This document shows positions 18,412 through 33,309 of a stretch of 64,000 nucleotides of DNA, one piece after another; positions within the stretch are counted from its first letter, which is position 1; every line of letters begins with the position of its first letter. Source of the stretch: an uncultured Holophaga sp. (lineage in GTDB: Bacteria > Acidobacteriota > Holophagae > Holophagales > Holophagaceae); the NCBI GenBank assembly GCA_963664825.1, contig OY761614.1:1952001-2016000 (forward strand), given 5' to 3'. The notes beneath the pieces are model-generated. The model was not told where the DNA came from. It was given only the letters and a program-made list of their open reading frames with translations, and ran no database searches. The position numbers and the translations under genes are program-made.

Positions 18412-19098
18412 ATGCCCCAGGCCCAAAAAACGATCCTCCAGACGCGCTCCCTGCGGGAGCAGGTCTATGACTATCTGCGCGGGGAGATGGCCAGCGGCGG
18501 GATGCAGCCGGGCTCCTTCCTGGACCTCAACGCCCTGGCCCTGCATCTGGGCATCAGTCGCACGCCCCTGCGGGATGCCCTGCTCCAGCTGGAGGTCGAA
18601 GGCTTCGTGGAGATCCTGCCCCGGCGGGGTTTCCGGTTGAAGCCTCTGGGTCTCGACGAGATCCGCAATATCTACCAGATCGTGGGGGCCCTGGAATCCG
18701 CTGCCCTGGCCACGGCGGGGCCCCGGCTGGGGAAGGCTGGGTTCGCGTCCATGAAGGCCGAGAATAAGGCCATGAGCCAGGCCATCCGGGCCGATGACTA
18801 CGAGGCCTTCTTCGCCCATAATCTCGCCTTCCACGGGATCTTCCTGGAGGCCAGCGGGAACCCGCGCATGGCTTCCCTGGTGCATTCACTGAAACAGCGT
18901 CTCTACGATTGGCCGCGCCGCAAGGTCTTCCTGAAGAGCTGGGAGGCCCGCTCGATCGAGGAACATGCCCGCCTCCTGGCGCTGATGGAGAAGGGGAAGT
19001 TCGAGGAGGCCGCGGCCTACCACCGGGATGTGCACTGGTCCTTCGAGGTGCAGGAGCCCTTCGTGCGGGTGTATTACCTGACGGACCGGGCCGAGTGA
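18412..19098 (+). CDS. GntR family regulator (FCD domain)
   Basis: SLREQVYDYLR, LGISRTPLRDALLQLEVEG, NLAFHGIFLEASGNPR, EEH. Confidence 0.93.
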   Translation: MPQAQKTILQTRSLREQVYDYLRGEMASGGMQPGSFLDLNALALHLGISRTPLRDALLQLEVEGFVEILPRRGFRLKPLGLDEIRNIYQIVGALESAALATAGPRLGKAGFASMKAENKAMSQAIRADDYEAFFAHNLAFHGIFLEASGNPRMASLVHSLKQRLYDWPRRKVFLKSWEARSIEEHARLLALMEKGKFEEAAAYHRDVHWSFEVQEPFVRVYYLTDRAE

Positions 19099-19119
19099 AG
19101 GGGAGCCTCCACTCAGGAT

Positions 19120-20763
19120 CTACTCCCGGTTGTTCGTGTACTTCGTGATGAGCTTTTCCCGCAGCCGGATGTAGAGGCCCGGCACCTGTTTCTGGATCCC
19201 GACGCAGAATTCGGTGAGGAATTTTTTCGCGGCCGCCGGGTCCTTGCGATGCAGCTCCAGGGCCTCGGCCTCCAGGGCGGGCAGCCGCTCCTGGATGCTC
19301 CGCTCGAAGGGATCCCGGGCCTCGCGCACATCCCGGATGGCGTCCTGGAAGCGCAGGTTGGCCAGGTTGTCCACGAAGTCGATGGTCCATCGCGCGCTGG
19401 CGTCGCTGTAGGCCTCGGGATCATAGATCTGGTAGCTGGGAGCCGTGTCCGTGACGCCCGCATACATGGGCACGTAGGGGCTGATGGCCGGGTTGTCCAA
19501 GTAGACCCAGTAGAGGCCTCCGATGCTGTCGGGCAGCCAGCCCCGCAGCTGGCAGACCATGCCGTAGTGGTCGCGATGGCGAGCCACCGGTCGGCGGTAG
19601 GTGATCTTGAGGAGGGCCCTCAGGTCCTTGCCGGGAAAGGGCGTGGCCAGGGGGCTTCGCGTCAGGCCACCCTTGGCATCCGCGACCTGCCAGGCGGGGT
19701 CCGAGGCCATATCGTAGATGCTGCCTTCCATGGTGGAGCGCTGGAAGGCGATGACATCCTGCACGGAGATCTTCTTCTCGGGTCTGAGGGAGAAGGGATA
19801 GATGGCGAGGGGTTCCACCGTCTGGAAGTAGGGACTGATGCCCTTGAGGGGCTCGGTTGGGTTGAGCCTGCGATCGGGCCAGGGGTGGCCGTTGGGCTTG
19901 AGGTTCGGCGCGAAGGTGGTGGCGAAGAGCCAGAAACGGCCCGTGGCGAATTCCTCGGGCAGGGGCGTGTAGGCGTCCTGCCAGATGAAGGGACGTCCCG
20001 CTTTGGGGTCGAACCAGCCCCGGTCAATGGCCTCCTGCTGGTAGTTCTTGGAGACGAGGAAGCGGGAGGCATCCTTCGGATCGATGCCCTTGATGATGCT
20101 CCAGTTGGGGATGAGCAGGGCTTCGTCATCGGGAATGCGCTGGGCGGCCCAGATGGCGCCGGGCTTGCCCCCGGCCTTCTTCCAGCCTGGTCCCACCGAG
20201 AAGACCTCGAAGACCCAGGCCTCCTCGGTGTCGCCGATGACGAGGGATTCCGAACCATCCGGAGAGGGGAGGAAGCCGTAGGTCTCCATGAGCTGGCCCA
20301 CGAGGCGGACCGCATCCTTGGCCTTGCGGCAGCGCTGGAGGGCGAAGACCTGGGCCTGTTCGATGGTCATGATCTGTTCGCCCGCGCCCTTGGCCACGGC
20401 GAGCTCGGGGCGCTGGCTCGTGGTGCTCTCGACGATGGCGAGCTGGTACTCGTTCATGTGGGAATAGGCGGACTGGAAGTAGGTGTAGGTTCGGGCTACC
20501 TGGGGTATGTAGCCGAGGATCTCCCCGGGACTGGCCAGGGGCCGGGAGGGATCCTGGAGGCCCCAGCCCACGGGAGCCTTCTCGCCGGCCCCGAAGGCAC
20601 GCCCTGGCACGACCCGAATGCGCGAATCGGGGCCACAGTCCGTGTGGGAGAGAATCACGGAGCCGTCCACCGTGGCCTTCTTGCCCGCGGCGATGACGGT
20701 GCAGGGCTGCAGGGTGAGGGACGCCACCAGCCATGTGAAGAGGATTACCAGGGGCTTTTTCAT
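19120..20763 (-). CDS. Secreted C69 family dipeptidase
   Basis: Signal peptide followed directly by CTVIAAGKKATVDGSVILSH; MNEYQLAIVEST; WAAQRIPDD. Confidence 0.88.
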   Translation of the reverse strand: MKKPLVILFTWLVASLTLQPCTVIAAGKKATVDGSVILSHTDCGPDSRIRVVPGRAFGAGEKAPVGWGLQDPSRPLASPGEILGYIPQVARTYTYFQSAYSHMNEYQLAIVESTTSQRPELAVAKGAGEQIMTIEQAQVFALQRCRKAKDAVRLVGQLMETYGFLPSPDGSESLVIGDTEEAWVFEVFSVGPGWKKAGGKPGAIWAAQRIPDDEALLIPNWSIIKGIDPKDASRFLVSKNYQQEAIDRGWFDPKAGRPFIWQDAYTPLPEEFATGRFWLFATTFAPNLKPNGHPWPDRRLNPTEPLKGISPYFQTVEPLAIYPFSLRPEKKISVQDVIAFQRSTMEGSIYDMASDPAWQVADAKGGLTRSPLATPFPGKDLRALLKITYRRPVARHRDHYGMVCQLRGWLPDSIGGLYWVYLDNPAISPYVPMYAGVTDTAPSYQIYDPEAYSDASARWTIDFVDNLANLRFQDAIRDVREARDPFERSIQERLPALEAEALELHRKDPAAAKKFLTEFCVGIQKQVPGLYIRLREKLITKYTNNRE

Positions 20764-20839
20764 GGGGTTCACCAAGTTCTTTTGGGTTCCAGGGCTGCGA
20801 AGGGGAAGTCTCCCACGGACCAGGGCTTCTAATGAAACA

Positions 20840-31696: not shown

Positions 31697-33231
31697 CCCG
31701 TCGGGGCATCCTCCGAAACATCTGTGCCTTGCTCCTCGGCGCGCTCTTGCCCTTGTGCGGAGCGCCTGCCTTCGAGGCGTCGAACAGCGTGGGCGGAATA
31801 TGGGTCTTCTCTGGGGCGCCGCCCTTCCCGGGGCTGCGCATGATGCAGATCGCCGTGAAGGCTGGAAGGGCCACGGGCACACTCACCACGGATTGGTACG
31901 GGCCCATGCCCATGCACGACCTCTGCATCCGGGGGAAGGCGGCCTCCTTCGGGATCCATAACGGCAACCCGCGTCTTCCCATGAAGACTTGGATGACCAC
32001 GCTCCAGGGCAAGCACCAGATGAGGGTGGTGGGTGATATCTGGGAGGAACACGTGGATCTGCTGGCCCGTCGGGGAACGGCTCGGGATGCGGCGCGACTC
32101 CGGTTCCAGGTGCAGCCCCTGCCCGCGCCAGCCAGGCTGGGGCCGGACGCGCTGGCCCCGACTCCCCCCATGGGCTGGAGCAGTTGGAACCGTTTCGCCG
32201 AGAAGATCGATGACCCCACCGTGCGCCGGATGGCCGATCTCATGGTCTCCACGGGGCTGCGGGACGCTGGGTATCTCTACGTCAATATCGACGATGGCTG
32301 GCAGGGCAAGCGGGATGCCCGGGGCGTGCTCCAGCCCAACCCCAAGTTCCCGGACATGAAGGCCCTCGCCGAATATGTCCATTCCCGGGGCCTCAAACTC
32401 GGGCTCTACAGTTCACCGGGGCCCAGGAGTTGCGCGGGGTTTGAAGGGAGCTACGGGCATGTGGAGATGGATGCCCAGACCTGGGCCTCCTGGGGCATCG
32501 ACTACGTGAAATACGATCTCTGCTCGGGGGAGGGGATCTTCCGGACCCCCGCGGAGGTCCAGGCGGCCTACCTGGCCATGGGGCAGGCCCTGCGGCGCAC
32601 GGGGCGCCCCATCGTCTACAGTCTCTGCCAATACGGGCGGGACCGGGTCGGAAGCTGGGGGCGCGACGTGGGCGGCCACCTCTGGCGCACCACAGGCGAT
32701 ATCTCGGACGACTACACCACCATGGCCAGGCTGGGCTTCGAGCGCAACGGGGATCCCGCCGATGCGGGCCCGGGGGGATGGAATGATCCGGACATGCTGG
32801 AAGTGGGCAACGGCGGCATGACCGCCGGGGAATACCGCACCCACATGAGCCTGTGGGCGATCTTGGCGGCCCCCCTGCTGATGGGGCACGATCTCCAGGC
32901 CATGACGCCCGAGACCTTCGCCCTGCTCGCCAATCCAGAGGTGATCGCCATCGATCAGGATCCCAAGGGCATCCAGGGGCGGCGCGTGAGGAAGGACGGT
33001 GCCGTCGAGGTCTGGTCCCGCCCCTTAGCCGATGGCTCTGCGGTGCTGGCCCTTTTCAATCGGGGTGAGGTGGAAGCCTCCGTGCGCTTCGAAGCTGCGG
33101 ATGCCGGTCTGGCCAGGTTCCTGAGCCTCCGGGATGTGTGGGCCCGCCGCGCATGGGAACCCGCGACCGGCACGGCCACGCTGCCCCCCCATGGTGTCCT
33201 GCTCCTGCGGGCCGCGGGGCCCCGCGGATAA
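31693..33231 (+). CDS. GH27 alpha-galactosidase (or beta-L-arabinopyranosidase)
   Basis: LAPTPPMGWSSWN, YVNIDDGWQ, GIDYVKYDLC, LWRTTGDI, WNDPDMLEVGN, NPEVIAIDQD. Confidence 0.92.
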   Translation: MTRRGILRNICALLLGALLPLCGAPAFEASNSVGGIWVFSGAPPFPGLRMMQIAVKAGRATGTLTTDWYGPMPMHDLCIRGKAASFGIHNGNPRLPMKTWMTTLQGKHQMRVVGDIWEEHVDLLARRGTARDAARLRFQVQPLPAPARLGPDALAPTPPMGWSSWNRFAEKIDDPTVRRMADLMVSTGLRDAGYLYVNIDDGWQGKRDARGVLQPNPKFPDMKALAEYVHSRGLKLGLYSSPGPRSCAGFEGSYGHVEMDAQTWASWGIDYVKYDLCSGEGIFRTPAEVQAAYLAMGQALRRTGRPIVYSLCQYGRDRVGSWGRDVGGHLWRTTGDISDDYTTMARLGFERNGDPADAGPGGWNDPDMLEVGNGGMTAGEYRTHMSLWAILAAPLLMGHDLQAMTPETFALLANPEVIAIDQDPKGIQGRRVRKDGAVEVWSRPLADGSAVLALFNRGEVEASVRFEAADAGLARFLSLRDVWARRAWEPATGTATLPPHGVLLLRAAGPRG

Positions 33232-33281
33232 TCCCTGCGGTCGTTCGCCGACGTCCTGTGGCCCAGCGGTAGGGTGGAACA

Positions 33282-33309
33282 GAAGAGCCCGGCCTGGGCC
33301 GGGCTCTTC
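33282..33309. terminator. Hairpin terminator between convergent GH27 and aminotransferase genes
   Basis: GAAGAGCCCGGCC-tg-GGCCGGGCTCTTC perfect inverted repeat. Confidence 0.75.

Follow-up and report, generated by a model that had tools for sequence, protein, structure and literature searches.

A predicted operon joining the hydroxyproline dehydratase HypD to glycosidases and prolyl peptidases in an uncultured Holophaga: a candidate anaerobic system for the degradation of plant hydroxyproline-rich glycoproteins

Among the glycyl radical enzymes of anaerobes, the hydroxyproline dehydratase HypD ranks with the most abundant. Here we consider a locus in which the gene for this enzyme is embedded among genes for glycosidases and peptidases, located at positions 18412-33309 of a 64,000-nucleotide stretch of DNA (hereinafter, the window) from an uncultured Holophaga sp. 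of the Acidobacteriota (assembly GCA_963664825.1, contig OY761614.1, positions 1,952,001 to 2,016,000). We argue that this locus probably, if far from certainly, is a GntR-controlled operon that would degrade glycopeptides of extensin-type hydroxyproline-rich glycoproteins (HRGPs) of plants or green algae to 1-pyrroline-5-carboxylate (P5C) without oxygen. The closest described system on the side of hydroxyproline (Hyp) catabolism is that of Clostridioides difficile (Protein Data Bank (PDB) entry 6vxc), which has in common with the Holophaga locus an equivalog-level HypD with all its catalytic and substrate-binding residues and an adjacent radical-SAM activase. In Clostridia, hypD typically adjoins proC, according to the accessible part of Huang et al. 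2018 (PMC6219649), whereas the gene considered here is flanked by peptidases and glycosidases in a genome where no ProC was found.

On the side of glycoprotein degradation, the hypBA cluster of Bifidobacterium longum (GH121 HypBA2, GH127 HypBA1, GH43 HypAA and an ABC transporter) and the XeHypBA1/2/AA cluster of Xanthomonas euvesicatoria are likewise aimed at the beta-L-arabinooligosaccharides of HRGPs. XeHypBA1, a GH146 enzyme, cuts the bond between beta-L-arabinofuranose (Araf) and Hyp, Araf-beta1-Hyp (PMC10850190, available portion), and the Xanthomonas cluster adjoins a pseudogene of a prolyl oligopeptidase, which led its authors to suggest HRGP degradation (PMC6085000, available portion). 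These clusters harvest sugars and lack HypD, an alpha-galactosidase and a protease resembling the Pro-Pro-endopeptidases (PPEPs), whereas the Holophaga genome has no match for araA, galK or galT, and the end product of its locus would be P5C made from Hyp. That HRGPs might feed HypD-bearing gut bacteria has been speculated upon by Huang et al., who, in the accessible text, describe the enzymes that free Hyp from the glycoproteins of plants as not known (PMC6219649). Similarly, an in silico study of Latescibacteria lists GH127 for extensin and, in its accessible part, does not treat Hyp catabolism (PMC4454575). The first-pass annotation of the window took the combined operon to be undescribed, and we, too, found no description of HypD joined to glycosidases in the literature, most papers in subscription journals lying outside the coverage of this search. 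The operon thus appears to be a new combination of known modules, namely HRGP deglycosylation, prolyl peptidases and HypD, with one uncharacterised protease family.

The seven co-directional genes, all on the plus strand, encode, in this order, an M24B peptidase, a glycyl radical enzyme activase, HypD, a GH146 beta-L-arabinofuranosidase, an S9B peptidase, a zinc protease with the HExxH motif and a GH27 alpha-galactosidase. The junctions between them measure -8, -4, -11, +19, +14 and -4 bp, confirming the earlier annotation of seven same-strand genes with overlaps or gaps below 20 bp; start and stop codons overlap at three of the junctions, and the G+C content at third codon positions (GC3) is 0.76-0.86 across all genes of the locus. 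The G+C content of the window is about 64%, many of the long open reading frames (ORFs) in it are antisense artefacts, and the gene set was chosen by family searches. In particular, an ORF at 19249-20832 (+) and another, of 1089 amino acids, at 19120-22389 (-) were discarded as antisense or read-through artefacts of the pepP gene, which encodes the M24B peptidase, and of a divergent gene for a C69-family dipeptidase.

The identity of HypD (23176-25536), as claimed in the first-pass annotation, stands. The protein scores 1196.8 bits against the equivalog family NF043068 (cut-off 1100; 1196.4 bits in the genome search) and can be aligned over the full length with the HypD of C. difficile, its best PDB match (6vxc, 1.5e-285). 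With residue numbers mapped by hand on this alignment (taking into account a 20-residue tag offset), both catalytic loops are seen to be kept, namely the Gly loop RVAGYS (Gly765) and the CXE Cys loop (Cys434, Glu436). The residues to which the accessible part of Backman et al. (PMC7077986) assigns the binding or activation of Hyp, that is Asp278, Asp339, His160, Ser334, Tyr450, Thr645, Phe340, Phe152 and Trp277, are identical in the two proteins. This sole HypD of the genome is a bona fide equivalog, predicted to dehydrate trans-4-hydroxy-L-proline to P5C. The radical-SAM activase (22280-23179) matches TIGR02494 with 333 bits (cut-off 174) and contains the CX3CX2C motif as CPLACAWC; with 326 bits, it stays under the cut-off of 425 of the Hyp-dehydratase activase equivalog NF043069, which is, nevertheless, its best-scoring equivalog. 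The first gene of the operon (20899-22287) encodes an M24B Xaa-Pro peptidase of the aminopeptidase P or prolidase type, predicted to be cytoplasmic (Pfam AMP_N 1.7e-23, Peptidase_M24 9.9e-45). It falls under both equivalog cut-offs (165 versus 465 for PepP, 144 versus 339 for PepQ) and is a likely Xaa-Hyp hydrolase that we propose to free Hyp from Xaa-Hyp peptides. The order PepP-activase-HypD is kept in the two closest genomes of the same genus (G007, G002) and in a genome of another genus (G019). Elsewhere in the genome, a PepP-like (32% identity) and an S9B-like (29%) gene form a second adjacent pair (G000:C1:3425054-3428123).

The first-pass annotation placed the product of the gene after hypD (25526-27844) in GH127/GH146 and likened it to HypBA1; the family membership was borne out and the HypBA1 type was not. 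The protein, which has a hydrophobic N-terminus, combines the Pfam domains GH127_cat (2.5e-106) and GH127M with a C-terminal DUF6805 jelly-roll and has no GH127C domain. Its best PDB match is BT0349 (5opj, 3.6e-130 over residues 28-768), followed, among solved relatives, by Bll3HypBA1 (4e-53), whereas the matches to GH127 chains range from 8.8e-26 to 5.9e-10, the latter being that to HypBA1 itself (3wkw), over residues 279-544 only. The acid/base Glu (NEYF) and the zinc Cys3-Glu site with the Cys nucleophile (ETC, CC), with roles as given in the available portion of PMC10850190, align with those of BT0349 and Bll3HypBA1. By these sequence criteria the enzyme is a BT0349-like GH146 beta-L-arabinofuranosidase and not a HypBA1-type GH127. 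This assignment matters because four GH146 enzymes have been characterised, two of which, XeHypBA1 and Bll4HypBA1, hydrolyse Araf-beta1-Hyp; BT0349 hydrolyses beta1,2-arabinobiose, which is the extensin-type linkage (PMC10850190, available portion for both). The operon enzyme is, then, a candidate for cleavage of the Araf-beta1-Hyp bond. The gene of BT0349 itself belongs to a rhamnogalacturonan-I locus, and the enzyme accepts oligosaccharides derived from arabinan besides beta1,2-arabinobiose (same source, same portion), whereas the operon gene sits between hypD and the genes of prolyl peptidases. A recent transfer of the GH146 gene from elsewhere was considered and rejected, since orthologues with 67-69% identity are present within the bacterial family and GC3 is uniform.

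The last gene of the operon (31693-33231) encodes a GH27 alpha-galactosidase, predicted to be secreted (Pfam Melibiase_2 6.9e-69, 232.7 bits), that is closest to plant alpha-galactosidases (PDB 6f4c 3.3e-100, 1uas 5.8e-96) and is extended at the N-terminus by some 125 additional residues. The plant enzymes match it at the motifs DD, KYD and TTGD, the rice enzyme among them at KYD and TTGD; we take the Asp residues of the latter two motifs to be both catalytic aspartates. The protein is a candidate enzyme for the Gal-alpha-Ser linkage of extensins; its gene is the sole PF16499 gene of the genome, just as the GH146 gene is the sole PF07944 gene.

The same two glycosidases bring up a different substrate, namely arabinogalactan proteins (AGPs) or other glycans with terminal beta-L-Araf and alpha-Gal or beta-L-arabinopyranose caps, such as gum-arabic-type AGPs or pectic arabinan side chains; the glycosidases would then trim the caps and the peptidases would digest the AGP core. 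The second-best solved relative of the GH146 protein, Bll3HypBA1, is beta1,3-specific and acts on AGP and arabinan (PMC10850190, available portion). Family GH27 also includes beta-L-arabinopyranosidases, and a GH127 enzyme encoded in a related cluster of another genus (G024, see below) is closest to PDB 6ex6. The latter is presumably a Bacteroides GH127 from an arabinogalactan locus. However, the operon enzyme has the Trp of BT0349 where Bll3HypBA1 has Phe or Ile, and the GH27 protein keeps the DD motif that, we assume, sets alpha-galactosidases apart from arabinopyranosidases. Furthermore, neither the operon nor the related clusters encode a beta-galactanase, beta-galactosidase, glucuronidase or rhamnosidase, which weakens the case for AGPs because the Hyp-linked galactan could not be removed without such enzymes. 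Altogether, we regard an AGP-type substrate as improbable.

Returning to extensin-type glycopeptides, their degradation would require the cleavage of the Hyp-rich backbone, and the most unusual candidate for this task is the HExxH protein (30113-31696), a two-domain, 527-residue protein predicted to be secreted. It consists of two homologous halves and matches Pfam ATLF with 33 bits (cut-off 27.4). The residues H156-E157-x-x-H160, Y194, E201 and E205 are invariant across 32 homologues, and the second half has no HExxH motif, so that the N-terminal domain is predicted to be active and the C-terminal copy degenerate. In a Foldseek search of the PDB with an AF2 model (pLDDT 86.5), the top 10 matches were all PPEP-3, PPEP-2 or PPEP-1 (E from 9e-5, TM 0.54-0.68 on the target); among the 23 matches with E <= 0.001, the catalytic domain of lethal factor appears first at rank 13. 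By sequence, the match to PDB 6fpc is marginal (8e-4), and NCBIfam has no family for this protein, nor for the GH27 protein. Judging from the model, the protein is an M34-like zincin of the lethal-factor/Pro-Pro-endopeptidase fold. It has in common with the M34 enzymes PPEP-1, -2 and -3 of Firmicutes and with lethal factor the fold, the HExxH motif and the downstream Tyr and Glu, and with lethal factor also the second, degenerate copy of the domain; unlike the PPEPs, it is two-domain, with marginal sequence similarity to them. According to the accessible part of PMC8610288, reports of PPEPs are limited to Clostridiales and Bacillales. At E <= 1e-5, the family of the HExxH protein numbers 2,524 proteins or more, most of which are annotated as 'hypothetical' or, which is implausible, as 'alpha-glucosidase'; it occurs in Acidobacteriota, Planctomycetota and Verrucomicrobiota and is nameless in the Atlas.

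Two putative exopeptidases complete the predicted secreted set. The S9B protein (27864-30098), of the DPP-IV/prolyl tripeptidyl peptidase (PTP) family, has the propeller and the catalytic domain (Pfam DPPIV_N 1.1e-39, Peptidase_S9 1.5e-39) and the aligned triad with Ser in GGSAGG, Asp and His, all of which it has in common with bacterial DPP-IV and PTP, its best PDB matches (1.5e-48 to 1e-46). In line with the first-pass annotation, it is a DPP-IV-type protein in propeller and triad; nevertheless, it is only some 25-30% similar to these enzymes, and no Glu-Glu motif, the anchor of the substrate N-terminus, was seen at the aligned place: the EE segment of 5yp1 faces a gap there, and the only EE pairs of the protein, those of residues 106 and 122, fall beyond the alignment. 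The S9B and HExxH proteins are fused in one ORF of a metagenome contig (L126:6539-11488), and two database homologues of the HExxH protein (P0082, P0085) carry a Peptidase_S9 domain, a Rosetta-stone hint that the two proteases may work together. The C69-family (Ntn-hydrolase) dipeptidase is encoded on the opposite strand (19120-20763), 135 bp of intergenic DNA separating the divergent gene from the operon. It is predicted to be secreted, with the nucleophile Cys21 following a hydrophobic leader (...LQPC/TVIAAG), and matches Peptidase_C69 (2.9e-41, 142 bits) and, under the cut-off of 250, NCBIfam C69_fam_dipept (134 bits). An orthologue with 84% identity occupies the same place in the same-genus genome G007.

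Gene order, family membership, catalytic residues, fold and comparative linkage are observed; in the scheme that follows, we infer from them all substrates and compartments, co-transcription, the operator and the sequence of the steps. Outside the cytoplasm, the GH27 alpha-galactosidase would strip Ser-linked alpha-Gal and the GH146 enzyme would strip beta-L-Araf, possibly including the last Araf-beta1-Hyp bond; the PPEP-like zinc protease would cut the exposed Pro/Hyp runs, and the S9B exopeptidase, together with the C69 dipeptidase, would trim the fragments. Small peptides could be taken up by a transporter encoded outside the operon, whereupon, in the cytoplasm, the M24B peptidase would release Hyp from Xaa-Hyp bonds, and HypD, activated by its radical-SAM partner, would dehydrate Hyp to P5C. 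The inspected N-termini fit this division: signal-like hydrophobic segments are present on the GH146, S9B, HExxH, GH27 and C69 proteins and on none of the M24B peptidase, the activase and HypD.

What would be the use of the sugars? In the single-contig, 3.47-Mb genome of the host (96.55% complete), profile searches gave no match for AraA_N, galK, GalT or GH43, and the GH51, M61 and epimerase proteins of the related G024 cluster, used as tblastn queries, found nothing. Given that no araA, galK or galT was found and that the only PF07944 and PF16499 genes belong to the operon, the glycosidases seem to serve deglycosylation, exposing the glycopeptide, and not sugar harvest. This bears on the possibility that the core of the locus serves the use of Pro/Hyp-rich peptides whatever their origin (collagen or gelatin, microbial peptides), with the glycosidases as passengers acting on unrelated oligosaccharides. 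A number of loci conform to such a view: PepP-activase-HypD free of glycosidases is the common form in the genus, other HypD loci contain POT transporters or M19, M3, M24 and M28 peptidases and no glycosidase, and genome G019, which has HypD-S9B-HExxH, contains no PF07944 or PF16499 gene at all. But passengers releasing arabinose or galactose would hardly be expected where these sugars have no recognised use, both genes, translationally coupled within the operon, are the sole representatives of their families in the genome, and in four further genomes the HExxH protease gene accompanies those of arabinofuranosidases and alpha-galactosidases, so that we consider this explanation unlikely. The known sugars of collagen are neither beta-L-Araf nor alpha-Gal, and collagen was rejected as the principal substrate because its sugars do not match the glycosidases.

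The comparative evidence for the extensin-type scheme comes from split versions of the operon. In another genus of the family (G019), the order is PepP-activase-HypD-S9B(78% identity)-HExxH(73%), with no glycosidase. In a third genus (G024), a cluster GH51-M24-GH127-S9B(66%)-HExxH(69%)-GH27(70%) is found with HypD on another contig; its GH51 is an alpha-L-arabinofuranosidase, its GH127 is a true member of that family (3e-202 to 6ex6, 8.5e-95 to HypBA1), and a divergent gene for a GH146-LamG protein and genes for an M61 peptidase and an aldose epimerase adjoin. In three genomes of a fourth genus (G336, G344, G356), the cluster is GH51-GH146-GH127-HExxH, the GH146 proteins being the 67-69% orthologues mentioned above, with HypD elsewhere in all three; in G336, the only Pfam-annotated one, the 3' genes encode an alpha-galactosidase-type protein (melibiase/NPCBM), DUF5695, an aldose epimerase and LacI. 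On a metagenome contig (L120), HExxH is followed by a GH27 gene that, like the one of G024, is 70% identical to that of the operon. Thus, linkage of the HExxH protease to HypD is seen twice, and three versions of the cluster join it to beta-L-arabinofuranosidase and alpha-galactosidase-type genes. By sequence assignment, non-orthologous replacement has occurred across the clusters, the beta-arabinofuranosidase being GH146 or GH127 and the alpha-galactosidase being GH27 or melibiase/NPCBM. The only glycosidase types in the related clusters are alpha-Araf-, beta-Araf- and alpha-Gal-specific ones, and no galactanase, glucuronidase or rhamnosidase is present in those of G024 and G336; alpha-Araf, beta-Araf and alpha-Gal are exactly the sugars of extensin, not those of arabinogalactan. 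Among the 133 genomes of the family, the HExxH protease is found in 6 and HypD in 39, with HypD in all 6 protease-bearing genomes, a co-occurrence that is suggestive only, because at most four independent lineages are involved. The proposal that one locus covers deglycosylation, proteolysis and radical Hyp catabolism, as made in the first-pass annotation, is thereby backed in silico, through the protease-glycosidase linkage in four further family genomes and the linkage to HypD in G019.

The same data bear on yet another explanation, a recent unselected juxtaposition, that is, chance insertion of a glycosidase-protease cassette behind hypD in the absence of a shared pathway. The full arrangement is confined to this genome and to near-identical or closely related contigs from public runs: in run X6, the HypD/GH146 and HExxH/GH27 junctions are spanned by contigs with 93-98% identity that come from a related strain, and a run labelled as peat metagenome (X7) contains exact fragments (the four public runs compared consist of contigs, not transcripts). 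Yet the overlapping start and stop codons at three junctions and the similar GC3 of all genes do not look like those of a chance insertion, HypD is joined with S9B-HExxH independently in G019, and every HExxH-bearing genome of the family carries HypD; mere juxtaposition appears, therefore, highly improbable.

A number of observations weigh against the degradation of extensin-type HRGPs by this operon. First, the complete operon is rare, no other HypD locus examined having the full gene set: in tblastn searches of 80 other HypD loci from diverse phyla, with up to 10 kb of flank, homologues of the GH27, S9B and HExxH proteins are found in 0/80, compared to 1/80 for GH146-like (L097, Planctomycetota), 10/80 for PepP and 20/80 for GntR. 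Neither GH146 nor GH27 lies beside HypD in any of 10 relatives of the same class, and G007 and G002, the closest genomes, have only (C69)-PepP-activase-HypD. Of the conservation of the neighbourhood around hypD, which the first-pass annotation named as a check of its proposal, there remain the parts that recur in related genomes. When the 1,028 ORFs flanking HypD at 88 loci were clustered all against all, almost no recurrent neighbours emerged except the activase, GntR and PepP. Pfam scans took in 209 of 342 selected neighbouring ORFs, one ORF overlapping HypD having been dropped (all 109 ORFs within 3.5 kb for L039-L062, 96 within 1.2 kb for L063-L118 and 4 more for L097, the ORFs of the Holophagae relatives lying outside these scans as a batch), and added one GH127-type gene, in a Gemmatimonas metagenome-assembled genome (MAG; L072), divergent from GntR-activase-HypD. 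This gene is the single PF07944 gene of its genome, compared to 10 in that of L097; by a rough estimate, not a computed one, two such cross-phylum adjacencies are about what chance would give. The other neighbours were POT transporters, M19, M3, M24 and M28 peptidases, PutA and unrelated genes. Second, since kin are not independent, the co-occurrence counts overstate the support. Third, in Planctomycetota with a HExxH homologue, PF07944 lies within 10 kb of it in 0/23 genomes, and 18/23 have no PF07944 gene at all. Fourth, the best-matching characterised GH146, BT0349, comes from a pectin locus, and a 36%-identical GH146 is part of an arabinan-type cluster, GH51-GH43-GH146-GH51, in genome G022. 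Fifth, there is no alpha-L-arabinofuranosidase in the operon, and no GH51 homologue or GH43 match in the genome; the alpha-capped Hyp-Ara4 side chain is, therefore, not one that the organism could clear alone. Finally, the operon has no transporter gene (two POT loci are present elsewhere in the genome), no match for ProC (PF14748 P5CR_dimer, TIGR00112), Pro_dh or a PutA-like protein was found in the genome, and the signal peptides were judged by eye only.

The attempt to generalise the link between the protease and arabinofuranosidases to Planctomycetota failed (0/23), so that an 'extensinase' role, if there is one, would be limited to the two-domain branch of the Holophagaceae type. With this restriction, we put forward a wider, tentative and rather doubtful proposal: the M34-like protein might found a peptidase family, the Holophagaceae branch of which would be an 'extensinase' for the Hyp/Pro runs of plant or algal HRGPs, acting jointly with beta-L-arabinofuranosidases and alpha-galactosidases and making, together with HypD, the first complete anaerobic route from a cell-wall glycoprotein to P5C. 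A metagenome scan with the HExxH protein yielded 9 loci, most of them shorter than 8 kb. Among the four longer HExxH loci from outside the Holophagaceae, arabinose-type neighbours occur only at L128. A DUF5695 protein of about 930 residues is encoded a few genes from the HExxH protease in two acidobacterial families, at L134:3081-5867, a G336-type cluster, and at L128:10815-13649 (genome G241), the latter with genes for S9B, an FGGY kinase, an aldose epimerase and GH43 in the vicinity; we regard this DUF5695 protein as a candidate glycosidase of the pathway.

The operon and its split versions name a testable set of enzymes for freeing Hyp from polymers, all of them candidates, that is GH146 (Araf-beta1-Hyp), GH27 (Gal-alpha-Ser), the PPEP-fold protease family and M24B (Xaa-Hyp). 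They suggest that some soil anaerobes mine HRGPs for an amino acid rather than for sugars; if true, this would be an unrecognised flux of carbon and nitrogen in peat and waterlogged soil, with the sugars discarded and Hyp as the prize.

As to the further fate of P5C, proC was found in 14/14 control genomes by the search that failed to find it in the host, where only generic aldehyde dehydrogenases are present (24-29% identity to a PutA). Genes for a class I/II aminotransferase and a short-chain dehydrogenase/reductase (33327-35788) adjoin the HypD locus of the window as well as those of G007, G002 and G019, and at two further loci (L040, L111) such genes are co-directional with PepP-GntR-POT-activase-HypD; either P5C or glutamate semialdehyde may be the substrate of these enzymes. 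HypD is directly followed by a PutA-type fusion of Pro_dh and aldehyde dehydrogenase in two loci of Verrucomicrobiota (L101:12199-16113, L104:11977-16128), which suggests that P5C is converted there to glutamate and not, as in Clostridia, to proline.

Regulation of the operon would be local. The earlier annotation of a divergent C69 dipeptidase and an adjacent GntR gene holds for both, and the limits that it gave to the locus coincide exactly with the start of the GntR gene and the end of a hairpin. The GntR/FCD-family regulator (18412-19098, +; Pfam GntR 5.7e-14, FCD 6.6e-21) is a candidate local repressor; its homologue adjoins activase-HypD in 20/80 other HypD loci and in 7/10 HypD regions of relatives. 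The near-palindrome CTGATATATTAG (20860-20871) is the sole site with at most one mismatch in the genome, compared to about 1.9 expected; a palindrome stands about 27 bp upstream of pepP in 4/4 aligned genomes, in the perfect form CTGATATATCAG in two of them. It overlaps the -10-like hexamer of a promoter-like element of pepP, TTGTCC-18-TATATT (20840-20869), and is a candidate operator of the adjacent GntR protein. At the other end, the strong hairpin reported earlier is present between the GH27 gene and the convergent aminotransferase gene as a perfect 12-bp stem with a 4-nt loop (33282-33309), probably a bidirectional terminator. No U-run follows on the plus strand, and the terminator-like call is on the minus strand (33300-33286); the whole 106-nt intergenic stretch folds no better than shuffles (z = -1.17), and the local stem is real.

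Some minor observations concern the surroundings of HypD. In another family of the class, a distant S9-family peptidase (25% identity to the operon S9B) directly follows HypD in two genomes (L028 of G031, L037 of G037), which is a further independent adjacency of HypD and a prolyl peptidase. On one Holophagaceae MAG contig (L051/L108), two more glycyl radical enzyme genes (35% to HypD) and three activase-like genes lie within about 13 kb of HypD. In the window, a protein of 1153 residues with a weak Phospholipase-B-like (Ntn-hydrolase) domain (3.5e-14) is encoded upstream of GntR (13132-16593, +), and proteins with 70-76% identity are encoded just upstream of GntR also in G007, G002 and G019. 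Between these two genes, the window contains 1.8 kb (16594-18411) with a G+C content of 0.60 and ORFs at 16940-18190 (+) and 17351-18256 (-) that have no Pfam match; since the flanking genes are only about 140 bp apart in G007, this stretch may be an insertion.

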